From a virus, in IMG/VR virus record IMGVR_UViG_3300027865_000007: a stretch of 64,000 nt of DNA. One strand, given 5' to 3'. The notes below the pieces were generated by a model. That model saw only the letters and a list, made by a program, of their open reading frames with translations, was not told where the DNA came from and made no database searches. The translations under genes were made by a program, and so were the position numbers. This document shows, one piece after another, positions 13,725-50,889 of the stretch. Position 1 is the stretch's first letter. Each line of letters opens with the position of its first letter.

Positions 13725-13732
13725 AGAAAGCA

Positions 13733-16364: not shown

Positions 16365-16368
16365 TTAG

Positions 16369-17523: not shown

Positions 17524-17533
17524 GAGAAGGACA

Positions 17534-35758: not shown

Positions 35759-35761
35759 CGA

Positions 35762-35941
35762 ATGGACAAATGGACAGAGATTTTCGAAGTCATCGAGAAG
35801 GCGCCGCTAGACAGTCGAATCAGAAGAAGAACCCTACTCTTCCTCAAGCTTGCCAAGGAAAAGTACTCACAGGAGATCTGCGACGAGATCATCAGTAGCA
35901 TAAAGAAGGAACTAGAGGAGATAAGAAAGGGTCTCAACTAA
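35762..35941 (+). CDS. small hypothetical protein (59 aa)
   Basis: ATG 3 nt after UDG stop; TAATG overlap with dnaE piece 1. Confidence 0.35.
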   Translation: MDKWTEIFEVIEKAPLDSRIRRRTLLFLKLAKEKYSQEICDEIISSIKKELEEIRKGLN

Positions 35942-36849
35942 TGGCTGAATTTGTACACCTTCATCTTCACTCAGATAGATCGCAACTTGACTCTATAATC
36001 CAGATCCCCAAGCTGATACCCCTCTGTAGAGAACAAGGAATGAGGGCTGTAGCCATCACCGATCACGGCGTGGTATCGGCTGCTATCAGGCTGTACGAGG
36101 AGGCGCGGAAGGAGAAGGATAAAGATGACAACCCTGTGGCGCCCATCAAGCCCATCATAGGCTGTGAGCTTTACCTAGCTCCTACAGATGACCATACGCT
36201 CCGCGAGCCACTGGAAGGTCATCCACCGCAACAGTGCTATCACCTTACGGCCCTAGCAAAGAACGCGGCGGGAGTCTCACAGCTATATCAACTCTCCTCG
36301 CTGGGTTATCTAGAGGGCTACTACTACAAGCCTAGAGTCTCTATCAAGCAGATCGAAGAGATCGGGAAAGACCTCATACTCCTAGGGGCTTGTGCCAAAG
36401 GCCCCGTCAGCTGGAGTCTTCGGAACGACAACCGAGCCCAAGCAGGGGAGTACCTGGCTCGTCTCCGCGACTCATTCAAGGACAGGTTCTACCTAGAGCT
36501 TATGTACCACGGGCTCCGCTTCCAGGAAGTACTAAACGAAGAGCTTCTAGAGATGTCCAGACTCTACGAGGTACCCTGGATCCCAACGAACGATGCTCAC
36601 TTCCTATCTAGGGAAGATCACTACGAGCACTCTCTAATGATGTGTCTCCAGCTGAAGAAGACTCTTCCAGAACTCGACGAAGCTAAGATGCGCTACCCAA
36701 CTGAGTGCTATGTGAAGAGTCCGGAGGAGATGGAGTCATACTGGGGTGAAGACGCCTGTAGAAGGACGCTTGAGATAGCAGAGCAGGTGGACATAACCCT
36801 AGAGCTAGACAAACAACGCTTCCCTCTTTACTCTGAGCCCGATATCTAG
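35941..36849 (+). CDS. dnaE: DNA polymerase III alpha (DnaE) fragment 1: PHP domain only
   Basis: FVHLHLHSDRSQLDS ... AVAITDHG ... IIGCELY ... HYHLTALAKN; ends at the position where piece 2 resumes in DnaE alignment. Confidence 0.85.
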   Translation: MAEFVHLHLHSDRSQLDSIIQIPKLIPLCREQGMRAVAITDHGVVSAAIRLYEEARKEKDKDDNPVAPIKPIIGCELYLAPTDDHTLREPLEGHPPQQCYHLTALAKNAAGVSQLYQLSSLGYLEGYYYKPRVSIKQIEEIGKDLILLGACAKGPVSWSLRNDNRAQAGEYLARLRDSFKDRFYLELMYHGLRFQEVLNEELLEMSRLYEVPWIPTNDAHFLSREDHYEHSLMMCLQLKKTLPELDEAKMRYPTECYVKSPEEMESYWGEDACRRTLEIAEQVDITLELDKQRFPLYSEPDI

Positions 36850-36853
36850 AGTA

Positions 36854-36862
36854 TGCTATAAT
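36854..36862 (+). promoter_or_regulatory. putative extended -10 promoter (TGcTATAAT) positioned for a leaderless transcript of the HNH gene
   Basis: TGnTATAAT ends 6 nt before the A of ATG 36869. Confidence 0.25.
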
Positions 36863-36868
36863 CTGGGG

Positions 36869-37753
36869 ATGAAGGATAGGACTTGTCAGATCGAGTGGTG
36901 CTCTTCCCCTATAGATAGGAAAGGGCTCTGCACTAGACACTACACCCAGCAATGGAGACACGGCCGGATCATTCCTAAAGGGAAGGAACGCCCCACAAGA
37001 AGGTTCGACCCAAGCGAAAAGGTCGAGATCAAATGTCCAGTATGTGAAGAGACATACAAGATCGGGCTGCCTTACTATCTCCACAGAGTACGAAACGGTA
37101 AGTATAGCCAATGCCACAAATGCTCACACAAGCTCCGCGTGGCAGACCTTCCATTAAATAAGAAGGTCGAGAAAGGTGTCATCGAGAAGCTTCCGGACGG
37201 CTCGACCGTTCACTGGGGCGACTTCACATACCGCAAAGGGGGAAGACTATTCAAAGTCCTATGCCGAGAGGGATGTCAAGGAAGAAAAGAGCGTAGGTGC
37301 CAGCCAACCTCACTTCTGAAAGGAAAGGGTCTGTGCATATCCTGCGCCATGCTCCGCCACCATAATGGAGGAAAGTTCCCAGAAGTTGGGGATAAGAGGC
37401 ACACCAGCACAGGATACACAGACATATACCTAGGAGCCAACTCACCTGAATGTCTCCACTCCAAGGCAGGATGGGTACCGGAACATCGGGCTGTATGGCT
37501 GGCTCATTTCCCAGAGGATAAGGAGAAGCTAGCCGACGGGTTTCACGTACACCATAAAGACGGCAACCAGACGAATAATCTAATAGAGAACTTGGCCTTG
37601 CTCTCCAGAAGCGACCACACTAAGTATACCTCCCGGCTCTCAAGCAGGCTTATGACGCTTCTAAATAACGGGGAGATTAAGATAGATAGTAAGCAGGCGG
37701 GACTAGAAGACATTCTATCCATCAACGACTGCTTCCCAGAATACTCGGAGTAA
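36869..37753 (+). CDS. HNH endonuclease (free-standing homing-endonuclease-like)
   Basis: Cys-rich N-terminus (CQIEWC...GLCTRHY) and C-terminal HVHHKDGNQTNNLIENLALLSRSDHTK HNH motif. Confidence 0.8.
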   Translation: MKDRTCQIEWCSSPIDRKGLCTRHYTQQWRHGRIIPKGKERPTRRFDPSEKVEIKCPVCEETYKIGLPYYLHRVRNGKYSQCHKCSHKLRVADLPLNKKVEKGVIEKLPDGSTVHWGDFTYRKGGRLFKVLCREGCQGRKERRCQPTSLLKGKGLCISCAMLRHHNGGKFPEVGDKRHTSTGYTDIYLGANSPECLHSKAGWVPEHRAVWLAHFPEDKEKLADGFHVHHKDGNQTNNLIENLALLSRSDHTKYTSRLSSRLMTLLNNGEIKIDSKQAGLEDILSINDCFPEYSE

Positions 37754-37755
37754 AT

Positions 37756-38382
37756 ATGAAGTTTTGCTTGATTTCGGATACCCACGGACACCACCGCAAG
37801 ATAGATATTCCTAAGGACTGCGATGCCATCCTCTTCGCGGGGGATATGACTAAAAGAGGAGAGCCCGCCCTCCTAGCAGACTTCGCCGCGTGGACAGAGG
37901 AGCTAGGAAAGCCATTCGTAGCTATAGCGGGGAACCACGACCTCTCCCTAGACAAGGACACCTCCCTAGAGCCACTGCTAGACAACCTTTGCTACCTGCG
38001 GGATTCCTCTGTCGAGTTCGACGGAATAAAGATCTATGGCTCTCCTATGGCAAAGAAGATTGGAGTCTGGGCATTCGGCTATCAGACAGATGGAGAAGCT
38101 AAGGAGTACTGGGATCTCATCCCAGACGACACCGACATCCTGATTACCCACGGCCCGCCGTTAGGCATGCTTGACAAGCTATACTACGGAGGGGAAAGGG
38201 TAGGCTGCCCAGTCCTACTAAAGGCCATCGACCGAGTGAAACCAAAGCTCCATCTATTCGGCCACATACATGAGAGATGGGGAATTATCAAGAGCCATCC
38301 AACGATCTTTGTAAACGCATCCATCTGCACTTGGCCAGGAGTGGCACCAACAAACAAGCCATTCGTGCTAAACATAGGATAG
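37756..38382 (+). CDS. calcineurin-like metallophosphoesterase
   Basis: ISDTHGH, GDMTKRG, GNHD, GHIHE motifs. Confidence 0.65.
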   Translation: MKFCLISDTHGHHRKIDIPKDCDAILFAGDMTKRGEPALLADFAAWTEELGKPFVAIAGNHDLSLDKDTSLEPLLDNLCYLRDSSVEFDGIKIYGSPMAKKIGVWAFGYQTDGEAKEYWDLIPDDTDILITHGPPLGMLDKLYYGGERVGCPVLLKAIDRVKPKLHLFGHIHERWGIIKSHPTIFVNASICTWPGVAPTNKPFVLNIG

Positions 38383-38391
38383 GAGCTATAG

Positions 38392-39006
38392 ATGAAACCA
38401 ATCTACAAGGAGGACTTCCGTACCATTAGAGCTAACACCTTCAGCGGGGTTAGGGTCAATGATTCTCAGCTAAGCGACGAGCCTACAGACATCTCGGCCT
38501 GGTTTGGAGGAGAGAATATCGGCTGCGTGCAGGAGGTCAACCTACAGATAACCAAGCAAATACTCCCTCCATATATGAGCAACCCAGACCCTAGGACTTT
38601 CAGCAAGGGCCAACAGGCTTTCGCAGGCAGTCTTACCTTCATCAACCTCAACAGAGATCTGGTCGCAGAGAAGCTAAGGGAGGAGATCCTCTACCCAGAC
38701 ATCCCCGCGATCAAAGAGGGAGATCCCTTCCCGCAAATCAAACTTGGTTCGTGCGAGTGTACGACTATCGAGGACTACCACCTAGATCAGTTCCCTCCAT
38801 TCGACATCGTCATAAGCCTAAGCAGCTTCCAAATGGTCATAGCGGGCGCAGAACTTCTCGTCGAGGGTTGGAGTTGCTGCATTGATGGGGTAGAGACAGA
38901 AAGGTCGCTTACCTATCTCGCCAGGAACTTCTTTATGCGCCCAATTCCGAGGGAGACAGAGACCAAGTCCGAAGATCCCTTCAATCTCCTAAAGAAACTG
39001 CTGTAA
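38392..39006 (+). CDS. hypothetical protein ending in conserved C-terminal tail DPFNLLKKLL
   Basis: C-terminus shared with 61455-61829 and 63273-63680. Confidence 0.5.
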   Translation: MKPIYKEDFRTIRANTFSGVRVNDSQLSDEPTDISAWFGGENIGCVQEVNLQITKQILPPYMSNPDPRTFSKGQQAFAGSLTFINLNRDLVAEKLREEILYPDIPAIKEGDPFPQIKLGSCECTTIEDYHLDQFPPFDIVISLSSFQMVIAGAELLVEGWSCCIDGVETERSLTYLARNFFMRPIPRETETKSEDPFNLLKKLL

Positions 39007-39010
39007 CCGA

Positions 39011-39394
39011 ATGCCGACTAAGCTCTACGAACCTTCGTATGTCAACCAGCCGGCAGATGGATCTTACCACGGTCTAGAGAAGGTAATGACTCAGTACTCT
39101 AACGGTACCGGTTTTAGTAAAGAAGACTTCGTCAACCCGCCAACCGATGGAGAGACCCAAAAGCTAACGGCTATGATCACGAAGATCTTCGAAGATCATA
39201 GCAAGGCGATCAATAAGGCGATCACCGACGAGCTCAAAGACTATTCCATCTCTGCCAAGAAGGCTTCGAAGCCGGCAGTAGTAGATCAATCAGGCAATGG
39301 CAACCACGGTGTAATTACCCCAGAAACCAAAAGCCCGCGGACTAGAACTCAGAGAGTCAAAGACCGGATGAAAGAGAAGTTCTTCACCGAATGA
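39011..39394 (+). CDS. hypothetical protein
   Basis: 127-aa ORF. Confidence 0.45.
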   Translation: MPTKLYEPSYVNQPADGSYHGLEKVMTQYSNGTGFSKEDFVNPPTDGETQKLTAMITKIFEDHSKAINKAITDELKDYSISAKKASKPAVVDQSGNGNHGVITPETKSPRTRTQRVKDRMKEKFFTE

Positions 39395-40062
39395 AACCTA
39401 TCTTCATCGAAGCAACGACACTAAGCGACGCATGGTTTCAAGCCCTCGATGCCGTAATGGATCACGGTAGAGTATGGACTGTAGATCACGGTTCCTATAT
39501 AGGACAGGATAGATGGGAGCTAGACTACGTTACGATTCACGTCAAAGACCCGGGAGCAAGACCTCTAATACCAGAGATCCCACCCGGACTAGCAATCCCG
39601 CCGCCGGTGAGCGACGAGTACGTTGAGGATTATCTTCCATACCTGATGACCGACCATAGGGAGCCAGGAGAGCAATACACCTATGGCGAACGCCTGAAGC
39701 CTCAAATGGAAGAGATCATAAGAAGGTATAAGAAGCACGGGTTTGGTTCCAATCAGGAGTGCATTGCCATAGCTAAACCAGAGGACATTATGTTAGATGA
39801 TCCTCCGTGCCTCAGACAGATAGACACCAGGATCTACAAAGACGAATGTCGTGAGGGCCCCGCCACCCTCCACTTCGTCTGCTACTTCAGGAGCTGGGAT
39901 CTATGGGGTGGATTCCCCGCGAACCTAGCAGGGATAAGGCTCGTCCAGGAATATATGGCTCTAGAGATTGGAGTCGAGGCAGGCGAGATGATTGTTGCAT
40001 CTAAAGGACTACATATCTACGACCATGCCTGGGATGTAGCTAAGATCAGAACTGCGAGATAG
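39391..40062 (+). CDS. thymidylate synthase (ThyA)-fold protein, short divergent form (TS or pyrimidine hydroxymethylase candidate)
   Basis: DPPCLRQID (PCH-like nucleophile region) and YFRSWDLWGGFPANLAGIRLVQEYMA (YQRSxD..G.PFNIASY-like). Confidence 0.6.
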   Translation: MKPIFIEATTLSDAWFQALDAVMDHGRVWTVDHGSYIGQDRWELDYVTIHVKDPGARPLIPEIPPGLAIPPPVSDEYVEDYLPYLMTDHREPGEQYTYGERLKPQMEEIIRRYKKHGFGSNQECIAIAKPEDIMLDDPPCLRQIDTRIYKDECREGPATLHFVCYFRSWDLWGGFPANLAGIRLVQEYMALEIGVEAGEMIVASKGLHIYDHAWDVAKIRTAR

Positions 40063-40064
40063 CA

Positions 40065-40253
40065 ATGAGAGAACAGTCAACAAGCCCACAGGAAGGACAA
40101 TGGTACTTCCGCCGGACAACTAAGGAGAAATTCTACGTTGATTTGGTGGACGGCAAGATTACCTACTGCCGGAGACAGGACGGAACCTATCTATGTGTGA
40201 GCACCCAGGAATTTGATGGCGGCTTCTCAAAAGTCGAAACACCCTCGCTGTAA
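40065..40253 (+). CDS. hypothetical protein
   Basis: 62-aa ORF. Confidence 0.3.
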   Translation: MREQSTSPQEGQWYFRRTTKEKFYVDLVDGKITYCRRQDGTYLCVSTQEFDGGFSKVETPSL

Positions 40254-40419
40254 GGGGTGCGGAACAGCCAGGCCACTAGAGGTTTTCTACGATACTCCTG
40301 GAGGCGACATATACCTCTGTTCTAACTGCATCTCAGAGCTACTCTACCGAATGCTAGACGGCTACTACGACGACGTAGGAGAAGTCTACGAGGAGTGGAT
40401 ATATGACAAGAAAGTATAG
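40213..40419 (+). CDS. small zinc-ribbon protein
   Basis: CKGCG ... CSNC. Confidence 0.35.
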   Translation: MMAASQKSKHPRCKGCGTARPLEVFYDTPGGDIYLCSNCISELLYRMLDGYYDDVGEVYEEWIYDKKV

Positions 40420-40744
40420 GGTCGAGTGGCAGGTCGAGTTCGACAGAGACGTCCTCTGCATCAAGATCGTCAGAGAAGACAGCGACAGTAAGAGAGGCAT
40501 TATCCTTCGCGTCCCCGACTCCGCTCTAATAGAGACCGACGAAGACGAGCAGTACGGCAAGCAGACTATCAAATGCTGGGACTACGATGGAGAAGGAGAG
40601 GAAGAGACTGTCATCGGCGGGGATGCAGATATTCTCAAGGACGGCAATATGGAACCTCCAGATCTTGATGGGCTATTCAAGTGGGAGGCACCGAAATCGG
40701 GGATGGAAGAGCTGCTCGCCCATATCCTGAGCAATAAAAAGTAG
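40403..40744 (+). CDS. hypothetical acidic protein
   Basis: 113-aa ORF. Confidence 0.4.
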   Translation: MTRKYRVEWQVEFDRDVLCIKIVREDSDSKRGIILRVPDSALIETDEDEQYGKQTIKCWDYDGEGEEETVIGGDADILKDGNMEPPDLDGLFKWEAPKSGMEELLAHILSNKK

Positions 40745-40777
40745 CAGTAGTTCTCTTTAGTGCTACAGTAATACAAG

Positions 40778-40862
40778 GGAAGGGTGACCGAGTCAGGCCG
40801 ATGGTGCACGCCTGAAGCGTGTGGTCCGAAAGGGCCCGTAGGTTCAAATCCTACTCCTTCCG
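40778..40862 (+). tRNA. class II (long variable arm) serine-type tRNA whose anticodon reads GAA (Phe)
   Basis: Acceptor GGAAGGG/UCCUUCC (as in tRNA-Ser), G73; D-arm ACCG-AGTCAGGCCGA-TGGT; anticodon arm CACGC-CUGAAGC-GUGUG (anticodon 40814-40816 GAA); variable hairpin with GAAA loop; T-arm GTAGG-TTCAAAT-CCTAC. Aligns base-for-base with the tRNA-Ser(GCU) at 42203. Confidence 0.6.
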
Positions 40863-40876
40863 CCGAGAGAAGGTAA

Positions 40877-41239
40877 ATGAAGCATCTGCTAGGAATCCTA
40901 CTTGCTCTAATCATCTCATTCCCAATCGTTTCCTATGCAGAACTAGAACCTCCCCTACCAGAGAGGTTCACCACAATGACCCTTGCCGGTGCCTCAACTT
41001 TTTCTCTAGGCATTGGGCTACTAACTACAGCCCTACTAACTACACAGTGGGAACCAATCGAAGCCTCGGCAGAGATCCTTGGTACAACCTTCATAGGGGT
41101 ACTAGAACCAGACAACCCCGCCGGGCTATGGGTTGTATACGGAATAGCAGGGGCAGCAATCTTAGCTGGGATCATTATTATCGTGATAGACTCCATCTAT
41201 CGGGCACTTAGAAGATGCCGGCGTAGCTCCAATGATTAG
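40877..41239 (+). CDS. membrane protein with signal peptide
   Basis: Signal peptide then two TM segments. Confidence 0.45.
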   Translation: MKHLLGILLALIISFPIVSYAELEPPLPERFTTMTLAGASTFSLGIGLLTTALLTTQWEPIEASAEILGTTFIGVLEPDNPAGLWVVYGIAGAAILAGIIIIVIDSIYRALRRCRRSSND

Positions 41240-41301
41240 AGCGAGGCTTTCGTAAAGCTTAGGTGTTGGTTTGACTCCAACCGCCGGCTCCAGGAGGAAC
41301 A

Positions 41302-41637
41302 ATGCTATCAGTGAAGTTCACCGAGAAAGACTGCGAATATCTCAACACATATGATGCTTTCTCTGCAGACTGGTATGAGGAACTAGCTAGCAAATGTTCC
41401 TGCGCACCCAGAGAGCTGAGAACGCTCGGCCTATTCGACCTAATCGATAGGCTAGACGAGGAGAAAGATTTTCTCGTAGTCCTGCAGTTCAACTCGCTAC
41501 CCGTTAGGCCCTGGTTCGAACCTGAAGGAGGATATGCATCAGTTGGCACCACCAAAACAACCGTCGATAGTCCCGCCGCAACCAAAGAAGAAGCCAAAGA
41601 GAAAGAAGCCCCGAAAGCCAAAGAGGAAAGGCAATGA
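41302..41637 (+). CDS. hypothetical protein
   Basis: 111-aa ORF with KE-rich tail. Confidence 0.4.
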   Translation: MLSVKFTEKDCEYLNTYDAFSADWYEELASKCSCAPRELRTLGLFDLIDRLDEEKDFLVVLQFNSLPVRPWFEPEGGYASVGTTKTTVDSPAATKEEAKEKEAPKAKEERQ

Positions 41638-41665
41638 GAGACAATAAAAGCTGCCTCAACTGCAA

Positions 41666-41902
41666 GTGGTGGCCAGGGAACTGGCCCGACACTATCTTAT
41701 ATCCGGATGGTATGGGGTTGAGCAGGACGAGCTCGTAGAGATCCTGGTGATACACGAGCCCCACGTGAATGTTAGGAGCAACGACGGCAGAGACCTCTGC
41801 TTGCCAAAAAGCATACTGATATCCGTAGCTGAGGAGAAGACTCCCCCAGCACCAAAGAAGAAGAAAGAGGCAAAGCCTGGCCCCAATGGGTTCTATATTT
41901 AG
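41666..41902 (+). CDS. hypothetical protein
   Basis: 78-aa ORF. Confidence 0.35.
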   Translation: MVARELARHYLISGWYGVEQDELVEILVIHEPHVNVRSNDGRDLCLPKSILISVAEEKTPPAPKKKKEAKPGPNGFYI

Positions 41903-41906
41903 ATAA

Positions 41907-41983
41907 GCCCGAGTCGCCTAGCTGGTATGGCGTCAGGTTTCCAACCTGAAATAAGATCGGTTCGAGTCCGTTCTCGGGTTCCA
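41907..41983 (+). tRNA. tRNA-Gly (anticodon UCC), CCA encoded
   Basis: Acceptor GCCCGAG/CUCGGGU (G1-U72), D-arm GCC-AGCUGGUA-GGC, anticodon arm UCAGG-UUUCCAA-CCUGA (anticodon 41940-41942), T-loop TTCGAGT (one U-U mismatch in stem), CCA at 41981-41983. Confidence 0.7.
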
Positions 41984-41995
41984 AGGAGAAGAGAG

Positions 41996-42196
41996 ATGTA
42001 TACACTAGAAGAAGCACGAGAAGCCAAGGAAGAGTTCAAGAAGCTTTACCCCGGCATCACCGTCGGGGTCGGGGCCTTGCCCGAGCCTCATCTTGCAGTT
42101 AGGGTTCAAAGTAAGTCAGACCTGCTGAGGATGCCTGCCGAGGTACTAGGCGTTACGGTGCAAGCTATTCTTACCGATGTACCAAGGGCATACTAA
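41996..42196 (+). CDS. hypothetical protein
   Basis: ATG 41996 with AAGGAG RBS right after the tRNA. Confidence 0.35.
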   Translation: MYTLEEAREAKEEFKKLYPGITVGVGALPEPHLAVRVQSKSDLLRMPAEVLGVTVQAILTDVPRAY

Positions 42197-42202
42197 GCCC
42201 AT

Positions 42203-42291
42203 AGAGAGGTGGCCGAGTCAGGCTTATGGCACCGTCCTGCTAAGGCGGAGGCCCCGAAAGGGGTCCGTGAGTTCGAATCTCACCCTCTCTG
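42203..42291 (+). tRNA. tRNA-Ser (anticodon GCU), class II
   Basis: Acceptor AGAGAGG/CCUCUCU, G73; D-arm GCCG-AGTCAGGCTTA-TGGC; anticodon arm CCGUC-CUGCUAA-GGCGG (anticodon 42239-42241); long variable hairpin GGCCCC-GAAA-GGGGUCC; T-arm GTGAG-TTCGAAT-CTCAC. Confidence 0.8.
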
Positions 42292-42303
42292 CTAGGAGTA
42301 AAG

Positions 42304-42843
42304 ATGGTTAGAGCAGCAACGGCAATTATAGCCCTACTCTGTCTAAGTAGTTGCGGCCAGAGATGCTACGACAATAGCTATGCCAACATCACAGATTACA
42401 ACGTTAGTCCTAATGCCACTACGCCCGGCGGAATAGAAGTAGACACCTCCGATCTGCCCGCCAACCTTATAGAAATAGACAGGCAGACAGAAGCACTAGA
42501 AGCCTGCCTCAAGATGACAGTAGATAGAGACTGTCTCACAGTCTTGATTGCTCCGGACTGGTATATCTCTGAGTGCTCGGGTCAGCAGCTCTTCCCCTGT
42601 AGGATCAACCCAGACATCTGTAGAGACAAGATGCGGAGAGACGGAATGGCGGAGGAAGAGATAGAGGAGACTCTTCTAGTCTGTCCCTGTGCCTGCCGGG
42701 CCACCATACAAGACGAGAATGTGGTAGTTGCCACGCCTAACCTCTTGCTCTATAGAGCAGAGCTCGCTAGAATGCTCACTGGAATCAACAACCCGTGGAT
42801 ACCAGGCATCAGCGAGTGTCTCCTAGATCACTCAGAGGAATAA
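42304..42843 (+). CDS. lipoprotein (Cys-rich)
   Basis: Signal peptide with lipobox LSSC. Confidence 0.5.
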   Translation: MVRAATAIIALLCLSSCGQRCYDNSYANITDYNVSPNATTPGGIEVDTSDLPANLIEIDRQTEALEACLKMTVDRDCLTVLIAPDWYISECSGQQLFPCRINPDICRDKMRRDGMAEEEIEETLLVCPCACRATIQDENVVVATPNLLLYRAELARMLTGINNPWIPGISECLLDHSEE

Positions 42844-43187
42844 CGAAAAAGGGAATCCTGCTCGCCGTAATGGCAATTGCTTTATCAGCTTGCTCAGAGG
42901 GTGGAACGCTACCCATTCACCTCCAGAACGACGAGGGACTCTACATACAGGTTGCTGACTCAACCAGGCTAGAGTCTGGGACGCCGATGGTTAAGGTGCG
43001 TCTATCGAATGACGCCCCGATCCCCCAGGTAGCAGATCTAACCTGTACCTTCAGGTCAGGAGAGTACGCCCAGGAAGCTTTCTACCGCATCGAGATGGGG
43101 CCGCGGGAATGGGAGTACGTTTACGTAATGGGGCCCAGAATAGGATTTGGTGTTCGTGCTCAGTGCGAAGTGGAGAGGGGAAGATAA
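42795..43187 (+). CDS. possible lipoprotein (start uncertain)
   Basis: Hydrophobic stretch with lipobox-like LSAC; tracked ATG overlaps the upstream gene by 49 nt. Confidence 0.35.
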   Translation: MDTRHQRVSPRSLRGITKKGILLAVMAIALSACSEGGTLPIHLQNDEGLYIQVADSTRLESGTPMVKVRLSNDAPIPQVADLTCTFRSGEYAQEAFYRIEMGPREWEYVYVMGPRIGFGVRAQCEVERGR

Positions 43188-43189
43188 GG

Positions 43190-43417: not shown

Positions 43418-43500
43418 GAAGGTGAACCCGACGGGCTGCCGGGGCTCGCCTCGAAAGCGAAGTGTCCTGAGATGGATGGGGATCGTGCCCTCCGCCTTCC
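43417..43500 (+). other. GC-rich structured intergenic element (outer stem GGAAGG...CCTTCC enclosing internal helices); possible small RNA or regulatory structure
   Basis: About 85-nt non-coding segment, about 70% GC with nested complementarity. Not foldable as a canonical tRNA (no T-loop). Confidence 0.25.
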
Positions 43501-43551
43501 GCTAAGTACTTGCAATTACTAGAAGAAGAGAAAGCAGAGATCAGAAGAGTG

Positions 43552-43560
43552 TGGTATAAT
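43552..43560 (+). promoter_or_regulatory. extended -10-like element TGgTATAAT abutting the start codon of the next ORF
   Basis: Perfect TGnTATAAT; the ATG at 43562 is only 1 nt downstream, so function as a promoter for that gene is doubtful. Confidence 0.2.
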
Positions 43561-43561
43561 T

Positions 43562-43846
43562 ATGGCTCAAGCACTGACTGAAGAAGAGATTCTAGGGACG
43601 TATATAGAGTTGCAGAAGAGAGTGTGGAATCTGATCGAGAGTCCTATCGGTCAGCTCCAGTACAAACTACGTCGACTCGACCCGAAAGACACGCCACCAC
43701 TGGATATCAGAAATGTGGGGAAGATAGTCGGCAAGATGGACGCTCTCAAAATTCTTCTACACTCCCTCGAAACAGACTTAGGTGTCGAGATAATCGAGCT
43801 GGAAAAAAGGGCAAGCAAGAGAAGGAACAAAGAGGAAAACGGATGA
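43562..43846 (+). CDS. hypothetical protein
   Basis: 94-aa ORF. Confidence 0.4.
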   Translation: MAQALTEEEILGTYIELQKRVWNLIESPIGQLQYKLRRLDPKDTPPLDIRNVGKIVGKMDALKILLHSLETDLGVEIIELEKRASKRRNKEENG

Positions 43847-44037
43847 AGCACGAAATCGAAATCACAGTCCTCCCAGGAGGCAAGCTCGAGACAGAGGTAA
43901 AGGGCGTATCAGGCCCAAACTGCGAAGGTCTGTCCGTGTGGCTTGAGCAGCTCGGTGAGGTTCTAGAGCACAAGAGGACCGTCCCTGCAAAGAAGAAGAC
44001 CAAGGAGAAGGTCGGCATCAAGCAGAAGGTCGGTTAG
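43843..44037 (+). CDS. hypothetical protein
   Basis: ATGA overlap with upstream gene. Confidence 0.4.
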   Translation: MKHEIEITVLPGGKLETEVKGVSGPNCEGLSVWLEQLGEVLEHKRTVPAKKKTKEKVGIKQKVG

Positions 44038-44046
44038 GAGAGAACG

Positions 44047-44463
44047 ATGAGCGCATATAGACTAATCGAGTGCGAGATCTACGAGGGAGAGCACATCATT
44101 GAGGCTCTCGTAGAGATGGGGATTCCCCGCTCTTGCATCGAGGTTCACGATACCCCTCAGGCCCTTCAGGGCTACACCGGTGACACCCGGAGTACAAAGG
44201 GAAACATCATCGTCCGGAGGAAGCACGTCAACAAGCACCTCTCCGGAGGATCCAGCAACGACCTCGGGTTCGAGCTCAGGGACGGCAAGTACGCTGCCCA
44301 CGTCTCAAACTACGATCAGGGCTGGTGGAACCGAAAGCAGGACCGCTTTATGCAGGTTGCTGCAGCTTCCCAGGCGATCAAGGCTGCGAAAAAGCGCGGC
44401 TACCGCGTGACCAAGACTGAAGTAGAGGGTAAGATCAAGATCAAGCTCAAGAAGTCCTACTAG
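44047..44463 (+). CDS. hypothetical protein
   Basis: 138-aa ORF. Confidence 0.45.
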   Translation: MSAYRLIECEIYEGEHIIEALVEMGIPRSCIEVHDTPQALQGYTGDTRSTKGNIIVRRKHVNKHLSGGSSNDLGFELRDGKYAAHVSNYDQGWWNRKQDRFMQVAAASQAIKAAKKRGYRVTKTEVEGKIKIKLKKSY

Positions 44464-44475
44464 TAGAGGAAGAAG

Positions 44476-46107
44476 ATGATCGAAGAACTCATTGCCTGCG
44501 ACGAGGCCAGGATCCCTGTGATCTGGTTCGTTACCCACGAAGAGTTGAGAGCAGAGGCCGAGATTGTCCGGTACACTAAGGACGATATGAAAGGCGAGCT
44601 CTGGATCTGGTCCCTAACCTCTAACAAGGGACAGGCCGGGTGGGAACCACCTCAGGGAACCATAAAGAAGAACCTGAAGGTGCCGTTCATCCCGGAGGAG
44701 GATCAGGCCGAGGTCTCTGTTGCCATCAAGACCTTCATCGATTTCGTAGCAGCAGAGGAAGAGGCGGCCGAAGCAGACGACCGCGAGGCAAAGAAGTACG
44801 TTGCTCTCATTCGAGACCCCCACGTCTTCTTGGACGAGGATATGTCCTTCAGGAGGATGCTCCGGGACGCGGCCAGAGAGCTGAGGGACACTGACTCGAC
44901 TATCGTCTGCGTTTCGCCGATCGATATGCTTCCCACGGATCTGAAGACCGACGTAGTGAAGATCCACGCTGGCCTGCCCAAGCAGGAGACCATCGAGAAG
45001 ATGATGAAGAACCAGCTGGAGGACTACGAAATTCCCATCACGGCGAAGGCGCTTAGTAAGCTGTCCGGAGCCTGTTGCGGAATGACCCTCCAGCAGTCCG
45101 CAGATACCCTAGCAAAGAGCCTTACCAAGTTCGGTGAGATCAACATCCAGTTCATCTCCCGGGCTAAGACAGAGGCAATCTCTAAGGTCTCAGGGCTAAG
45201 GTACGAGGGAAAGACCCCTTCGATGGATGAGGTCGGAGGCCTAGCCGGCATCAAGGAGTGGATGCTAGAGAGAGCCGGAGGATTCTCCCAAGAGGCCAGA
45301 GACTTCGGCCTACCGTCTCCAAGAGGCGTTCTCTGCCTTGGTATTCCGGGCACCGGAAAGAGCCTCTTCTCAAAGGCCGTGGCAGCGATGCTCGACCTCC
45401 CGCTTATCGCCCTGACCACCCCGGATCTGAAGGGTGGCATCGTAGGTGAGACGGAGGAGAACGTCAGGAATGCATTCGACACGATCAACACCATCGGCAA
45501 CTGCGTGGTCAGGATCGACGAGATGGAGAAGGGCCTTCCGTCCTCGGAGGGAAGGAATCTAGACGCTGGTGCCAGCGACGCTGTCCTCGGTGGGCTCTTG
45601 AAGTGGATGCAGGACAGAGAGAGCGGAGCATTCCTCGTGGCTACGGCCAACGATATCTCCGCAATGAGGCCAGAGCTCCTCAGGAAGGGAAGGTTCGACG
45701 CAATCTTTTTCGTTGATCTCCCAGATCTCGAAGAGAGGAAAGAGATCTTCCTGATCCACCTGGCAAAGAGGAACAGGAAGCTCAGCAGCCAGGACATCGC
45801 GACAGTCTCGATGGAGACAAAAGGATACTCCGGCGCTGAGATTGAGGCATCCGTCATCGATGGCCTCTGGAAGGCCTGGAGCGACGGCAAGAGGAAGATG
45901 ACTACGGACGACATCCTGTCTTGCATCAGGATGGATGTCCCCCTCAGCCAGACGATGGCCGAGCACATCAAGGCTCTGAGAGAGTGGGCCGACAAGAGGG
46001 CAAGGTCTGCCTCCAAGACCACGGCGGATATGGCCGGGCTTAGCAAGGATAAGAAGTCCACGAAGAAGCCTGGCAGACGGAAGCTGAAGCTCGAGAAGGC
46101 GAATTAG
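44476..46107 (+). CDS. AAA+ ATPase (classic clade) with about 260-aa N-terminal domain
   Basis: Walker A GIPGTGKS, Walker B VVRIDEME, sensor ATAN, arginine finger region GRFD. Confidence 0.8.
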   Translation: MIEELIACDEARIPVIWFVTHEELRAEAEIVRYTKDDMKGELWIWSLTSNKGQAGWEPPQGTIKKNLKVPFIPEEDQAEVSVAIKTFIDFVAAEEEAAEADDREAKKYVALIRDPHVFLDEDMSFRRMLRDAARELRDTDSTIVCVSPIDMLPTDLKTDVVKIHAGLPKQETIEKMMKNQLEDYEIPITAKALSKLSGACCGMTLQQSADTLAKSLTKFGEINIQFISRAKTEAISKVSGLRYEGKTPSMDEVGGLAGIKEWMLERAGGFSQEARDFGLPSPRGVLCLGIPGTGKSLFSKAVAAMLDLPLIALTTPDLKGGIVGETEENVRNAFDTINTIGNCVVRIDEMEKGLPSSEGRNLDAGASDAVLGGLLKWMQDRESGAFLVATANDISAMRPELLRKGRFDAIFFVDLPDLEERKEIFLIHLAKRNRKLSSQDIATVSMETKGYSGAEIEASVIDGLWKAWSDGKRKMTTDDILSCIRMDVPLSQTMAEHIKALREWADKRARSASKTTADMAGLSKDKKSTKKPGRRKLKLEKAN

Positions 46108-46131
46108 AGCAACCCTATAGCCCCGACGGGG

Positions 46132-47031
46132 ATGATAGTTATGGCAAAGAAGAAGCCAGCCAAGTCTAAGAAGACCGAGAAGCCTAAGATCAGACGGTTC
46201 ACCCTTGTCGAAGGTGGCAAGAAGCGATTCTGGCAGATCTCTCTCTTCAACGCAGAGGATCCCGTTCGCGTCGTGAGAAATTGGGGCAGGATCGGAGCCA
46301 AAGGTCGAGAGAAGGTTCAGACCTTCAACGCGGCGGGATCTGCCAAGCAACTCTTCGACGATATGATCGCAGAGAAGGTTGGCCGGGGCTACAAGGAGAC
46401 TAAGGTCAAAGGCCTAGTCGAGACATCCCCAGGGGTCTGGGTAATCGCAGAGGAAGAAGAGCCAAAGGAAGCTTTCTTCGAGAAGCCCGAGAAGAAGGTT
46501 GCGAAGCCACCTAAGCTACCAAAGAACTGGCCTGAGGTGAAGAAAAATCTCCTGCCCGAGGAGATTGTCCTCTACGAGAAGCACAACGATACTAGGACTC
46601 GTCAGAGGCGGGCGGCCCTGTGCAAGAAGCATACTCCGCTGCTTAGGCCCACGGCAGTACATGGGAAGGAGACCAAAGCACTCCGAGAAACAGTGTGGGT
46701 TCTTCTCAGGTGTGCATACCTCAGGTTCCTGCTGGAGCTTTCCCTCTACAATCCTGACACCACGGATGCAGGAAGGTCGGCCCTAACAGCTCTCGCGGCG
46801 AAGCTAGAGAAACTTCCCTCGAGCCAAAAGAAGTATGTGAACGAGAAGCTTGCTCCCATCACTTCCGACAAGGCTAAGGGTGGGTTCAGCATCAAGAGTG
46901 CCGAGGAAGGTATCAATGCTTTCTCTCTCGAAATGATCAGAGAGATCAATGAGAAAGAGAAGATCGGGTACGGAGGAATCAACCGAAAGAGAGCGAAGAG
47001 GCTCGCCGGTCGATTGAAGAGAGCAACGTAA
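46132..47031 (+). CDS. WGR-domain protein with C-terminal extension
   Basis: KRFWQISLFNAEDPVRVVRNWGRIGAKGREKVQTF...GYKE matches the WGR domain. Confidence 0.6.
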   Translation: MIVMAKKKPAKSKKTEKPKIRRFTLVEGGKKRFWQISLFNAEDPVRVVRNWGRIGAKGREKVQTFNAAGSAKQLFDDMIAEKVGRGYKETKVKGLVETSPGVWVIAEEEEPKEAFFEKPEKKVAKPPKLPKNWPEVKKNLLPEEIVLYEKHNDTRTRQRRAALCKKHTPLLRPTAVHGKETKALRETVWVLLRCAYLRFLLELSLYNPDTTDAGRSALTALAAKLEKLPSSQKKYVNEKLAPITSDKAKGGFSIKSAEEGINAFSLEMIREINEKEKIGYGGINRKRAKRLAGRLKRAT

Positions 47032-47624
47032 TGTACTGGTTCGTAGCAGATACCCACTTTGGCCACGACAACATCCGTCGCTACTGCGACCGCCCGTTCT
47101 CTTCAGTAGGGGAGATGGACGATGCTCTCATAGGAACCTTCTCTAAGCTAGTGAAGAAGGGCGACACTCTTATCCACGCAGGCGACATCGCAATGAACCC
47201 GAAGTTTATCCTGCGGTTCCTCGACTCAATCGACGGCAAGATCCTCTACTGCTTCGGCAACCACGACAAGAAGAAGCATAGAGGGATTATCAAAGACCAC
47301 CCGGCGGTGATACACACCGGAGAGCTAATAGCCGGAGACATAGAAGGTAATCACGTTGTAGCGTGCCACTATGCAATGAGAGTCTGGGACAGAAGCCACC
47401 ACGGCTCTACCCACGTCTACGGACACTCCCACGGAACTCTACCTCCTATGGCAGGCTCACTCGACATAGGTATCGACAATGCTTTCAGGCTGTTAGGAGA
47501 GTATCGACCGTTCTCTCTCGAAGAGGTTCTCAAGTTCTCTTCAGAAAAGGGTCTAGAGAAACAGGAAGAAATCATTTATGCTTATGTAGAGCACCTCCAC
47601 AAGACGGTGGGCTCCGGGGAGTAA
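47031..47624 (+). CDS. calcineurin-like metallophosphoesterase
   Basis: VADTHFGH, AGDIAMN, GNHD, GHSHG. Confidence 0.65.
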   Translation: MYWFVADTHFGHDNIRRYCDRPFSSVGEMDDALIGTFSKLVKKGDTLIHAGDIAMNPKFILRFLDSIDGKILYCFGNHDKKKHRGIIKDHPAVIHTGELIAGDIEGNHVVACHYAMRVWDRSHHGSTHVYGHSHGTLPPMAGSLDIGIDNAFRLLGEYRPFSLEEVLKFSSEKGLEKQEEIIYAYVEHLHKTVGSGE

Positions 47625-47864
47625 ATGTCCGAAGAAAAGAAGCCCGCCAGAACCAAAGGTCTCTCAAGAAAAAGAGCTGCCGAAGCTATATGCTGGGAGT
47701 GTCTTGGAGGAAAGACTAGAGAGAACTGCCAATCCCCTTGGTGTCCTCTATATGCATTCAGAAGCGGAGTAGAACAATCGGACTGCAAGTTGTGGTGGAT
47801 GGAGCCTAAGTCGGAGTGGGAGAAGCTCTACAGGAAGAAGAGTAAGGAGGATGAAGGAGAGTGA
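47625..47864 (+). CDS. small Cys-rich protein
   Basis: CWEC ... CQSPWC. Confidence 0.35.
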   Translation: MSEEKKPARTKGLSRKRAAEAICWECLGGKTRENCQSPWCPLYAFRSGVEQSDCKLWWMEPKSEWEKLYRKKSKEDEGE

Positions 47865-48120
47865 TGCCTACCCGTGGGAAGTTCGAGTACTTCTAACTGA
47901 GGAAGCTCTCAAGAGAGATGCAGCAGTAATAGACATCCTCGACGAGCTTGTATCTACAAGTCTCGCCTACCATTGTCCATACTGTGGGAAGAGAAAACCG
48001 TTCGAGACCTGTCGGTCTTGCAAATATCTAGAGAGCTGTATTGAAGGCGGCGTGCTGGGATGCCCCGGCTGCCTGAATTGCGAAGGTATAAGTGGAAAAC
48101 TCCGAGCTGTTGAGGACTAA
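47851..48120 (+). CDS. small Cys-rich zinc-binding protein
   Basis: CPYC ... CRSC ... CPGCLNC. Confidence 0.35.
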   Translation: MKESDAYPWEVRVLLTEEALKRDAAVIDILDELVSTSLAYHCPYCGKRKPFETCRSCKYLESCIEGGVLGCPGCLNCEGISGKLRAVED

Positions 48121-49726
48121 AGCCCTCGCAGGACTAGAAGAGAGAGGGCTCTCAGGTAAGCAAGAGTATGTAGACCGCCTAGAGTATGAACTCGAAACCA
48201 TTGAGAAGCTAGGATTCACGACCTACTTCCTTGTGATGTGCGACATCGTGAGGTTTGCCAGAGAGAACGACATCCTCTATGGCCCCGGTCGCGGGAGCGG
48301 AGCTGGAAGTCTACTGAACTACTGCCTAAAGATCACGCTCATCGACCCACTAAAGTACGGGCTCCACTTCGAGAGGTTCCTGAACCCCAATAGGGTATCT
48401 CCACCAGACATTGACTGGGACACCGCCGATCGAGGTAGAATTATTGAGTATCTCGAGGGAAAGTACGGTAAGGACAGAGTCGCTCGCGTGGGTACAGTCA
48501 ACTTCCTGAGAACGAAGAGCGCTATCAGAGACATCGGTAGAGTCCTTGAGAAAGAGTTCAAGTTCATAGACAACCTAGCTGAGCTTGTACCTCCGCCCGT
48601 CGCCGGCCTCTGGGATAGTTTTGACCGGGAGGCTGAGGTCGAGCCAGAACTCCTCTCGTCTAGGTACCAAGAGATCATAGACCCCACTAGGAAGCTCTGG
48701 GGGGTACTCAGGAGCTATGGTACACACGCAGGAGGGGTTGCTATAGCCCCCATACCAATCAGCGAGATGGCGCCCCTCTACAAGGATAAGGACGGTAATC
48801 CAGTCTCTCAGTTCGACTGGAGAGACCTCGAGAAGGCAGGGCTACTCAAGTTCGATATCCTAGGGCTAAACACCTTGGAGGTAATCCAGCTGACCCTGAA
48901 ATATCTGAAGGTCGACGCGATAGACCTTGATCTAGAGAGTCTCGAGGACGGAGACCCAGACGCATACAAGATGATTTGCAGCGGCGATCTTGATGGGGTA
49001 TTCCAGCTCGGCGGGAGTGAGTCAATCAAGCAGCTCACAGTCTCTATGTCTCCCAAATGCATTGAGGATCTCGCCCTTGTGACGAGTCTCTACCGCCCAG
49101 GCCCTCTATCTAGTGGAATGGTCGATGGCGCCGTGAGGGTCAAGCAAGGGAAGGCTACTCCTAAGTACATCGACCCCATACTTGCCCCAATCTTGGACGT
49201 GACGCACGGCGTTCCTGTCTTCCAGGAACAGATTATGAATATCTGCACTGACCTATGTGGGTATACCCTTCCCGAAGCAGACAAGATGCGGAAGATTGTA
49301 GGTAAGAAGCTCAAGAAAGAGATGCCCAAACAGAAGAAGATGTTCGTGGAAGGAGCCATTGCAAATGGGGTACCTCGGAGCGGAGCCGAAAAACTTTTCG
49401 GACAGATAGAGGATTACGCTCAGTACCTGTTCAACAAGACACACGCAGTCGCTTACTCCGTAATAACGTACTGGACGGCATACCTAAAGGCCCATCATCC
49501 AATAGCTTTCTACGCTAGCCTCCTCGCTTGCGAGAAACATCCAGACAAGAGAACGCAGTACGCGAGCACGATCAAAACGGCGGGGATAGACATTCTTCCA
49601 CCCGATGTAAATCTATCGGGCTTCTATCACCAGCCAGAGGGAAACGCAATCAGGTTTGGCCTCAGCCACATCAAAGGGATGGCCACGGCTACCGCTCAAG
49701 AGATCGTAGACCTTAGAAATGACTAG
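48092..49726 (+). CDS. dnaE: DNA polymerase III alpha (DnaE) fragment 2: palm/thumb/fingers core
   Basis: GFTTYFLVMCDIV ... GPGRGSGAGSLLNYCL ... FERFLNP ... PDIDWD and later blocks; starts exactly where piece 1 ends in DnaE alignment. Confidence 0.9.
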   Translation: MENSELLRTKALAGLEERGLSGKQEYVDRLEYELETIEKLGFTTYFLVMCDIVRFARENDILYGPGRGSGAGSLLNYCLKITLIDPLKYGLHFERFLNPNRVSPPDIDWDTADRGRIIEYLEGKYGKDRVARVGTVNFLRTKSAIRDIGRVLEKEFKFIDNLAELVPPPVAGLWDSFDREAEVEPELLSSRYQEIIDPTRKLWGVLRSYGTHAGGVAIAPIPISEMAPLYKDKDGNPVSQFDWRDLEKAGLLKFDILGLNTLEVIQLTLKYLKVDAIDLDLESLEDGDPDAYKMICSGDLDGVFQLGGSESIKQLTVSMSPKCIEDLALVTSLYRPGPLSSGMVDGAVRVKQGKATPKYIDPILAPILDVTHGVPVFQEQIMNICTDLCGYTLPEADKMRKIVGKKLKKEMPKQKKMFVEGAIANGVPRSGAEKLFGQIEDYAQYLFNKTHAVAYSVITYWTAYLKAHHPIAFYASLLACEKHPDKRTQYASTIKTAGIDILPPDVNLSGFYHQPEGNAIRFGLSHIKGMATATAQEIVDLRND

Positions 49727-49803
49727 AAGCTCAGTAAAACATAATGTAGTAGCAGGGGAGGCAAGATGCTACTATCACGCGTGCACTTGAGTAGGAAAAC
49801 TCG

Positions 49804-50889
49804 ATGACAATTTCCTCGATCAGGGACATCGTCGAAAGAACTTCTGCTAATGCCAAAGCCCTTGAGTGCTTAGGGAAGGCGGGAGCCTTCAACAACCTAG
49901 AGGACGGGCTAAACGAGCTAGAGGCAGCCGAGTACGGTCGGGAGATGGTAGTCTACCTCCGCGATCTAGGGAAGTTCAAGGAGCGTTCTGCTAAGCACGC
50001 TGAGTCTCTCCATCAGAAGGAAGAGAAGTTCCGAGATAAGGTAGAGGCCCGCCGCGTTCGAATGGAAGAGAAGGATGCCAAGTACCAGAAGAAGCTAACC
50101 GAGTACGAGGCCCGGCTAGCCGAGGTACAGGTAAAGAATGCAGCGAGAGGCGATAAGAAACCCCTAAAGGAACCCGTAAAACCACTACCACCGAAGCCTC
50201 TGAAAGGCGTTGAGTATCCAAAGCCTTCGAAGGTTCCAACAGAACCACCAGAACCACCGAGACCTAGGATTGCCCTCTCACAGCGGGAGAGAGTCCGCCT
50301 CCAGAGAGAGATGCTCTACATCTATCTCACAGGCCATCCCCTCGACGAGGCCCTGCCCGAGAATGGACTCACTCCAATTGGAGATCTAGCCCTGCTAGTT
50401 TCTCCCGACGGCGAAGAGGTTCCTAAGAAAAAGAGAAAGAAGATAGTCGTAACAATTCGTGGCGTGCTGCTATCACATAAGGTCACGAATACTCGAAGCA
50501 AAAAGCTTATGGCCAGACTCCGTCTCGAGGACAAGACAGGTAGCATAGAGGTAGTAGTCTTCCCTGCCCTCTATGACTCCCTAAAGGGCCTCCTAACCGA
50601 CGGTGAAATATATAAAGTGACAGGAGAGGTCGACACGACAAAGAATGTTGGTGACGACGGAGAAGAGCGCTCACATACCCAAGTAAAGGGTAAGAAAGTT
50701 AGAGCTGTCAGGATTGGCAGCGATAAGGAGTGGGATATCAACTACCCGCTCCTGCGGGGAGGACTTAGGATTCTCCCAGGACCAGCGCAGAAATCGAAAG
50801 GACTTGCTGCGAGTACCATAATGCAGCAGGCCCGAAAGACTATCGAGGCAAGGATTGAAGCACTTCGACAGAGTTCAACGCTACTGTGA
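49804..50889 (+). CDS. dnaE: DNA polymerase III alpha (DnaE) fragment 3: C-terminal HhH/OB-fold region
   Basis: KALECLGKAGAFNNL (HhH region) and OB-fold VVTIRGVLLSHKV...LRLEDKTGSIEVVVFPALYDSL. Separated from piece 2 by a TAG stop and a 78-nt spacer in a different frame, with its own RBS. Confidence 0.8.
   Translation: MTISSIRDIVERTSANAKALECLGKAGAFNNLEDGLNELEAAEYGREMVVYLRDLGKFKERSAKHAESLHQKEEKFRDKVEARRVRMEEKDAKYQKKLTEYEARLAEVQVKNAARGDKKPLKEPVKPLPPKPLKGVEYPKPSKVPTEPPEPPRPRIALSQRERVRLQREMLYIYLTGHPLDEALPENGLTPIGDLALLVSPDGEEVPKKKRKKIVVTIRGVLLSHKVTNTRSKKLMARLRLEDKTGSIEVVVFPALYDSLKGLLTDGEIYKVTGEVDTTKNVGDDGEERSHTQVKGKKVRAVRIGSDKEWDINYPLLRGGLRILPGPAQKSKGLAASTIMQQARKTIEARIEALRQSSTLL

Follow-up and report, generated by a model that had tools for sequence, protein, structure and literature searches.

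The 64,000-nucleotide (nt) stretch of viral DNA analysed here, hereafter called the window, corresponds to the record IMGVR_UViG_3300027865_000007, a single metagenome contig of an uncultured large phage, probably of the jumbo type. In this window dnaE, the gene for the alpha subunit of a C-family DNA polymerase, is spread over three open reading frames (ORFs), all located on the plus strand and within one replication module (Table 1). The original prediction had described these ORFs as collinear, non-overlapping pieces of a single DnaE, and alignments to solved structures and to a full-length family model bore this description out. Against the solved structures, piece 1 aligned to residues 6-290 of the Thermus aquaticus (Taq) enzyme and 3-307 of Mycobacterium tuberculosis (Mtb) DnaE1, piece 2 to residues 314-875 of the Mtb enzyme, 311-854 of the Escherichia coli enzyme and up to 909 of Taq, and piece 3 to Taq residues 929-1097. 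Likewise, the three pieces covered positions 5-290, 294-847 and 937-1049, respectively, of the NCBIfam model PRK05673 (1146 positions), and when they were fused in silico, one uninterrupted match extended from position 5 to 928, with the start of piece 3 included in the part from 847 to 928. The window therefore holds three ORFs and not a single-polypeptide DnaE of ~1100-1200 amino acids (aa) with all domains, and these ORFs are collinear, non-overlapping parts of one complete DnaE from which nothing is missing. At the level of family cut-offs, the fusion (877 bits) and piece 2 (577 bits) passed the superfamily threshold of TIGR00594 (434 bits), piece 1 (228 bits) and piece 3 (43 bits) failed it, and no equivalog model was passed even by the fusion (for example, 925 bits for PRK05673, with a cut-off of 1002).

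Table 1. Features of the split dnaE locus and its surroundings in the window.
Feature	Position	Strand	Size and remarks
dnaE piece 1, PHP	35941-36849	+	302 aa; Pfam PHP 3e-39
HNH endonuclease gene	36869-37753	+	294 aa; HNH_3 8.8e-10, 15 PHROG HNH families
Calcineurin-like phosphoesterase gene, conserved near PHP	37756-38382	+	orthologue in L008
tRNA cluster Phe-GAA, Thr-CGT, Gly-TCC, Ser-GCT	40778-42292	+	within the 11.2-kb interval
dnaE piece 2, polymerase core	48092-49726	+	544 aa; DNA_pol3_alpha 3.7e-77, finger domain 1.2e-44
Spacer between pieces 2 and 3	49727-49803	+	77 nt, non-coding; 9-bp hairpin GTAGTAGCA...TGCTACTAT and AGGA ribosome-binding site
dnaE piece 3, C-terminal subunit	49804-50889	+	361 aa; OB fold PF01336 5.6e-12
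Calcineurin-like phosphoesterase gene	50855-51724	+	289 aa; overlaps the end of piece 3

The residues expected to carry out catalysis were retained. In piece 2, the polymerase aspartates D106, D108 and D255 correspond to D463, D465 and D618 of Taq. Piece 1, when aligned to Taq and Mtb DnaE1, carries all nine metal ligands of the PHP site (H8, H10, D17, H42, E76, H101, C151, D218 and H220). Six of these (H42, E76, H101, C151, D218 and H220) were invariant in 27 members of the clade of related phages described below, and the N-terminal HxH...D was present in the consensus, its conservation being incomplete because of truncated gene calls. Mtb DnaE1 is described as having an intrinsic PHP proofreader with a complete nine-residue metal site (PMC5636811). 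The PHP domain of piece 1 is of the type that proofreads in this enzyme, and we predict that it has zinc-dependent 3'-5' proofreading exonuclease activity. Each piece also has its own start codon together with a ribosome-binding site or a coupled overlap. Indeed, the start ATG of piece 1 overlaps the stop of an upstream small ORF (TAATG), the GTG start of piece 2 is preceded by AAGG (AAGG-N6-GTG), and piece 3 starts with an ATG that has AGGA 8-11 nt upstream (AGGA-N7-ATG). Both piece 1 and piece 2 end in TAG.

The position of the break between pieces 2 and 3 (break 2) is informative about how the products might function. Piece 2 comprises palm, thumb and fingers and runs on into the (HhH)2 domain, which consists of two helix-hairpin-helix (HhH) motifs and of which this piece holds the first half. 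Alone, piece 2 covered positions 1-46 of the HHH_6 model (90 positions; 41 bits), and the fusion across the junction covered positions 1-84 (73.7 bits). Break 2 is located in the loop between the two HhH motifs, and one small DNA-binding domain is spread over two polypeptides. Because (HhH)2 is divided in this way, pieces 2 and 3 would have to assemble, which we consider the strongest argument for an association of these two, and they are probably obligate partners. With respect to the junction itself, the TAG stop, the different reading frame and the new ribosome-binding site (AGGA) were all found as predicted, except that the spacer measures 77 and not 78 nt.

An AlphaFold2 model of piece 3, built with a 21-sequence alignment, reached a mean predicted local distance difference test (pLDDT) score of 82.8. 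In this model the second HhH occupies residues 1-40, with two short helices at 6-25, and is followed by a single Lys/Glu-rich helix of 78 residues (38-115), a disordered linker rich in Pro that lacks regular secondary structure (116-159), the conserved helix known ahead of the OB fold of bacterial DnaE (160-176), the OB barrel (215-301) and, finally, a C-terminal beta hairpin and helix. A Foldseek search of the PDB with this model returned OB folds of the single-stranded DNA-binding protein type and Mtb DnaE1. In E. coli alpha, the region at the place of the long helix and the linker contains the internal clamp-binding motif.

Between pieces 1 and 2 lie 11,242 nt, in agreement with the predicted 11.2 kb. 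The content of this interval differs somewhat from the approximately 20 unrelated genes that had been proposed, as it comprises about two dozen ORFs plus four tRNA genes. These tRNAs and the many unrelated ORFs mark the interval as ordinary genome rather than an intervening element. The HNH ORF starts 19 nt beyond the stop codon of the PHP gene (piece 1) and ends 2 nt ahead of the phosphoesterase gene. No homologue of it was found in ten related loci examined, even though these relatives are split. In the related locus L008 (such handles denote loci or proteins of relatives throughout), the PHP gene directly overlaps the orthologue of the window's phosphoesterase gene, while other small ORFs occupy the place of the HNH gene in L009, L010 and L120. 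Since the HNH gene is absent in the relatives and the PHP and phosphoesterase genes are adjacent in L008, its insertion is younger than the split, and the HNH gene is a precise, later and lineage-specific intergenic insertion into an already split layout. Its HNH match, its intergenic position between conserved genes and its sporadic distribution are all traits of free-standing homing endonucleases, and we consider it a putative enzyme of this type that is not part of the polymerase.

A promoter-like element had also been proposed in front of the HNH gene. One extended -10 match, TGCTATAAT, is indeed present at 36854-36862 and ends 6 nt before the HNH ATG, but a generic sigma-70 scan showed no promoter near this gene, and its overall counts were at background level. 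Exact extended -10 motifs (TGNTATAAT) were found four times in the window, at 20910, 32825, 36854 and 43552, all on the plus strand, compared to 0.7 expected, and 1 of 100 shuffled sequences reached four, so that this excess is suggestive and nothing more. The motif at 43552 ends 1 nt before an ATG. As promoters, the matches at 36854 and 43552 would imply leaderless or very short-leader transcripts.

The suggested comparison of intact and split dnaE among related phages could be made in independent metagenome contigs of 66-245 kb, one of which is an IMG/VR viral genome of 229 kb. The same two breaks recurred in dozens of relatives with 40-67% identity. A word-index search identified 25 free-standing homologues of piece 3 (313-347 aa, 40-56% identity), all of which start at the same residue with M-x-F-x-S-I, and ~38 PHP-only homologues of piece 1 (255-321 aa, 50-67% identity). 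The closest homologues of piece 2 are ~545-550 aa long, are longer only through inteins, and none of them carries a PHP domain. The gene order, which is conserved among these contigs, runs from the ribonucleotide reductase (RNR) gene through sugar-nucleotide genes, RecA, uracil-DNA glycosylase (UDG), PHP, phosphoesterase and thymidylate synthase to MazG, DUF2997, DUF1257, AAA and WGR, followed at some distance by the core, the C-terminal piece and a phosphoesterase and, further on, the primase. The PHP domain was absent from every related core, including the more distant P0163, P0170, P0173, P0177 and P0272. Because every core of the clade is without PHP, the break at the PHP/palm boundary (break 1) is, on this comparison, ancestral to the whole clade and older than break 2. 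The distance from the PHP gene to the core gene is 5.3 kb in L120, 11.2 kb in the window, ~12.4 kb in the IMG/VR genome and ~13 kb in JAPOGW010000003.1. PHP-only and PHP-less core genes occurred together in the window and in the five contigs in which both were located (JAPOGW010000003.1, Ga0452216_000005, an SRR21545381 contig, an SRR19053155 contig and the IMG/VR UViG).

At junction 2/3, the relatives exhibited a wide range of arrangements. The two genes overlap by 4 nt (ATGA or TTGA, typical of translational coupling) in L091, L119, L128 and L131 and by 11 nt in L129, and they are separated by 243 nt with one small ORF in L005, by 809 nt with three small ORFs in L121 and by 1445 nt with five small ORFs in L120. 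None of the nine small ORFs found at this junction in relatives matched an endonuclease family; one of them is DUF7352. Clean in-frame fusions were present in L122/P0170 (syntenic), L127, P0163, P0173 and P0272, and the fused forms aligned residue for residue across break 2. L127, for example, reads straight through the break ('...KFREESGSRFETIQ...'), although with identities to the window of 64% (core) and 56% (C-terminal part) it is as close as any split relative. Fused and split forms were interleaved in a neighbour-joining tree of the C-terminal part. From this distribution we conclude that break 2 is labile, its split or fused state having changed more than once, and a one-nucleotide indel at an ATGA overlap would convert a split gene into a fused one. 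The coexistence of both states among relatives also implies that the two forms may be functionally equivalent.

The clade is small, since an exhaustive profile search among 1.84 billion cluster representatives returned only 11 proteins at E <= 1e-30 (seven free-standing, three fused and one fragment). By megablast, the 16-kb region matched none of 50,697 phage records, and tblastn of piece 3 against the same collection gave weak OB-fold matches only, so that it contains no cultured relative. A profile search of genome contigs with piece 3 returned bacterial DnaE C-termini only, with neither a clade member nor a clue to the host.

The junctions were also inspected for any means by which the pieces could be joined. 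An E-value scan of positions 35500-51500 with Rfam 15 detected the four tRNAs only and no intron family, neither at the spacer, for which a group I intron had been a concern, nor elsewhere in this region. The spacer folds no more stably than shuffled sequence (z = 0.19) and has no similarity to the sequences of the relatives; its 77 nt thus show none of the hallmarks of a group I or group II intron. None of the pieces matched an intein or Hint family of Pfam. Moreover, their ends are flush on the DnaE profile (290/294 at break 1 and 847 onward at break 2), which leaves no space for intein halves, and no ~100-aa N-intein, ~35-aa C-intein or Cys/Ser/Thr +1 context was found. The prediction that the junctions are free of inteins and introns therefore stood. 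Amber read-through by the phage's own tRNA-CUA was considered and rejected: an in-frame TAA follows 3 and 5 codons past the TAG of pieces 1 and 2, respectively, so that read-through adds only 4 and 6 codons. Ribosomal bypassing as in T4 gene 60 was likewise rejected, since no in-frame landing codon matches the take-off codon GAC and the relatives do not share the spacer. How an intein junction looks in this clade can be seen in L091 (IMGVR_UViG_3300037067_013742), whose core region (7011-10004) contains a genuine split intein with the junctions '...YLFNA/CLSANTEVLV' and '...VISGN/SHSVAYAYL' (slashes mark the boundaries) on either side of a free 284-aa LAGLIDADG ORF; by this standard, the window is visibly without one. 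The L091 intein, which adds to the two intein-free breaks, lies three residues away from where the cyanobacterial DnaE intein is inserted, and DnaE of L091 is thus encoded in four ORFs.

Mobile elements and amber codons also appeared elsewhere in these genomes. The RNR large subunit of the window (26087-30619, plus strand; 1510 aa) contains two inteins (LAGLIDADG_3 at residues 506-602 and Intein_splicing/Hint at 953-1309), and that of relatives contains none or one (729, 874, 1140 and 1208 aa). Further inteins were detected in the AAA ATPase of L010 (19747-20903) and in the primase of L121 (16117-18969). The recA gene is in pieces around a 345-aa Myb-like ORF in L010 (6470-8760) and enlarged to 506 aa in L008 (7180-8700). 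As to amber codons, the tRNA with the anticodon CTA at 14071-14146 (plus strand) is an amber suppressor that ARAGORN labelled tRNA-Pyl. Among 100 greedily chosen plus-strand ORFs, TAG was the commonest stop codon (41 TAG, 37 TAA and 22 TGA), and reading TAG as a sense codon changed the coding density from 0.93 to 0.92. Recoded late genes in other parts of the genome may depend on this tRNA, or it may cause C-terminal extensions. The DUF1257, AAA ATPase and WGR genes (44047-47031, plus strand) share one frame, with nothing but TAG stops and short spacers between them, so that a polyprotein would result from amber suppression, although this arrangement may be a coincidence.

Phage genes in pieces are familiar from nrdA/mobE of Aeromonas phage Aeh1, the split gene 43 polymerase of some T4-like phages and the T4 topoisomerase gp39/gp60. 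As is proposed for the window, an essential enzyme of replication or nucleotide metabolism is made there as separate polypeptides that reassemble non-covalently, and the carriers of such genes are large lytic phages rich in homing endonucleases and inteins. The window differs in that the gene is a C-family DnaE, that the split is three-way and that 5-13 kb lie between PHP and core. In Aeh1 nrdA, the endonuclease gene is located exactly in the break and is its evident cause, whereas the HNH gene of the window is lineage-specific and the breaks predate it; an endonuclease inside the break whose presence tracks the split state was not found at this locus or its relatives. The closest cellular counterpart is the cyanobacterial dnaE, which is described as two genes whose products are ligated by a split intein (PMC3919608), the break being adjacent to the FNKSH motif. 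Both systems encode a C-family alpha in separate, possibly distant genes that together make up a complete DnaE. However, the cyanobacterial gene is in two pieces with a break in the fingers (equivalent to residues ~447-451 of piece 2), and its halves carry intein fragments and are trans-spliced, while the window has three pieces whose breaks are intein-free and located at the PHP/palm boundary and inside (HhH)2. For bacterial C-family polymerases, the two large surveys that were searched mention only intein-split and frameshifted dnaE.

A free PHP protein is unusual in itself. We know of no characterised cellular DnaE enzyme in which PHP is not covalently part of alpha; in Mtb DnaE1 it lies within the alpha chain, whereas in the window it is a free 302-aa protein. 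A PHP domain acting in trans would be a functional analogue of the E. coli Pol III epsilon proofreader, which is separate from alpha. Among 79 sampled IMG/VR loci, PHP was fused to the core in 72-74. In L190 (IMGVR_UViG_3300042923_000275, 9998-13494), a 307-aa PHP gene overlaps an 869-aa gene for core and C-terminus in a different frame, and in L187 (IMGVR_UViG_3300014205_000177, 9083-16852), a cpYpsA(SLOG)-PHP fusion lies 3.6 kb from a PHP-less 779-aa core, with a DnaQ-like exonuclease and an intein-containing helicase in between. Genes 83/84 of Mycobacterium phage MrMiyagi are annotated as a DnaE-like protein in two overlapping genes, with a break that, unlike those of the window, falls within the core region. 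These three are unrelated lineages (~30% identity) with two pieces each, none of them broken inside (HhH)2. With L187 and L190, the PHP/palm boundary breaks recurrently, and the splitting of phage DnaE is rare but recurrent. In the literature we found no description of a three-piece intein-free DnaE, of a break in (HhH)2 or of the related contigs, and the split genes of L187, L190 and MrMiyagi are apparently unstudied.

Given the conserved breaks and the lack of any joining mechanism, we favour, with a probability of about 0.72, the reading that two gene fissions led to a DnaE made as three separately translated chains, which would form a non-covalent three-subunit enzyme with a PHP proofreader acting in trans. 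The multi-subunit replicase with a free PHP domain that had been predicted is thus, on comparative evidence, the most plausible reading. The three products would re-associate non-covalently into a DnaE-like polymerase, in which the PHP subunit would proofread in trans while docked on palm and thumb, its place in an undivided DnaE. The catalytic core would consist of palm, thumb, fingers and first HhH, and piece 3 would complete the duplex-binding (HhH)2 module and supply the OB fold. Several observations weigh against this reading. The PHP gene is 5-13 kb away from the core gene and could have an independent role, and a search of 10 kb around the fused core of L122 and L123 revealed no PHP gene. 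A 201-aa ORF upstream of the L123 core was considered as a degenerate PHP and rejected, as it has no meaningful similarity. Furthermore, a crude pattern search revealed no canonical internal clamp-binding motif in piece 3, and AlphaFold2 applied to the in-silico fusion without an alignment gave an uninformative pLDDT of 35.7 and a predicted template modelling score of 0.27. Finally, the bootstraps of the tree described above (41% for L127 plus the window and 6-55% at deep nodes) are too weak to show how many fissions and fusions took place or in which direction.

The distance between the PHP and core genes and the situation in L122 and L123 would also fit sub-functionalisation, in which PHP became an independent phosphoesterase or exonuclease, comparable to stand-alone PHP proteins or the PHP of PolX, and the core works with other nucleases, for which the phosphoesterase encoded beside piece 3 would be a candidate. 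The location of the PHP gene among genes for nucleotide metabolism and repair (UDG, RecA, thymidylate synthase and MazG) and the conservation of two calcineurin-like phosphoesterases in the module point in the same direction. Yet the PHP protein keeps the DnaE-specific positions 5-290, including the part beyond the Pfam PHP domain that packs on the palm, PHP-only and PHP-less core genes co-occur as listed above, and the divided (HhH)2 speaks against an independent piece 3; we therefore regard this scenario as unlikely, if still credible. The fissions themselves might be adaptive, with PHP as a dissociable subunit whose fidelity or exonuclease activity could be tuned or shared, and with the conserved charged helix and the linker of piece 3, in place of the usual clamp-binding region, as a tau-like tether or dimerisation scaffold that couples cores or recruits replisome parts such as the phosphoesterase. 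This extension of the three-subunit reading is doubtful, and if true, it would represent a replisome architecture not seen in cells.

The other explanations concern the origin or the reality of the breaks. That a homing endonuclease caused the split, through insertion of the HNH gene or its ancestor into an intact dnaE, had been suggested by the start of the HNH_3 ORF so close to the end of piece 1, and it would suit a clade rich in mobile elements (inteins in RNR, AAA, primase and dnaE core, and recA in pieces) in which small inserted ORFs accumulate at junction 2/3. This suggestion was not borne out, because the HNH gene occurs in the window only and is missing from all ten related loci; moreover, the layout of L008 indicates a recent insertion, pieces 1 and 2 are kept apart by 5-13 kb of conserved unrelated genes and tRNAs and not by one endonuclease gene, and the ORFs at junction 2/3 resemble no endonuclease. 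An ancient endonuclease-mediated break that has since been erased is possible, but overall we judge an endonuclease-driven split to be very unlikely. Even less credence can be given to the idea that the pieces become joined after all, be it by split inteins, RNA splicing, bypass or frameshifting over the 77-nt spacer, or amber read-through. The precedents are the intein-linked halves of cyanobacterial dnaE and the split intein in the L091 core, and the window itself offers TAG stops after pieces 1 and 2, a tRNA with the anticodon CUA and a hairpin in the spacer. Apart from the abutting termini, the negative intron scan, the early TAA codons and the missing landing site for GAC, no conserved recoding signal can fit a junction that is a 4-nt overlap in some relatives and in others spans up to 1.4 kb of ORFs, which makes joining extremely improbable. 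Lastly, the window is a single metagenome contig, and its stops could be sequencing or assembly errors or signs of a decaying pseudogene. However, the contig was assembled independently in data of the Joint Genome Institute and the European Nucleotide Archive, with identical piece 3 and gene order, and the same break points in dozens of divergent relatives rule out sequencing error. Moreover, the catalytic residues are invariant, every piece retains its translation signals, and 11 kb of functional genes lie between pieces 1 and 2, so that we see hardly any chance of an artefact or decay.

Some neighbouring genes might contribute to the same replication machinery. A phosphoesterase gene follows, and usually overlaps, the C-terminal piece or the fused gene in 8/8 relatives examined, including L005, L091, L119, L120, L121, L122 and L127. 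The two conserved phosphoesterases could be nuclease partners of the replicase. Further away, the window carries accessory genes on the plus strand (44-1933, 2028-3404, 10511-11305, 14168-15277 and 17450-18682) that encode a Major Vault Protein shoulder/Vault_3 protein, an RNA ligase, a Thg1-like tRNA-His guanylyltransferase, an ATP-dependent DNA ligase and a nucleotidyltransferase, and together suggest a tRNA repair or maturation module. Throughout the window, the large ORFs are all on the plus strand, the AT skew is strongly positive (0.11-0.24), and the GC content is ~51%.

To our knowledge, C-family polymerases have been seen as single-chain enzymes, with one textbook exception, that of cyanobacteria, which is re-ligated by an intein. 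A replication enzyme in pieces is familiar as a phenomenon, and no new mechanism is demonstrated here; a natural PHP in trans and a split (HhH)2 are nonetheless somewhat surprising. In annotation pipelines these ORFs will appear as partial or pseudogenised dnaE, with pieces 1 and 3 falling below the family cut-offs. The close relatives with a fused or a split junction provide a clean case of easy interconversion between gene fission and fusion in phages. In addition, the clade marks two positions at which the fold tolerates a chain break, namely the PHP/palm boundary and the loop between the HhH motifs, and it would offer a natural system for PHP proofreading in trans, in which the structural and catalytic contributions of PHP could be told apart.

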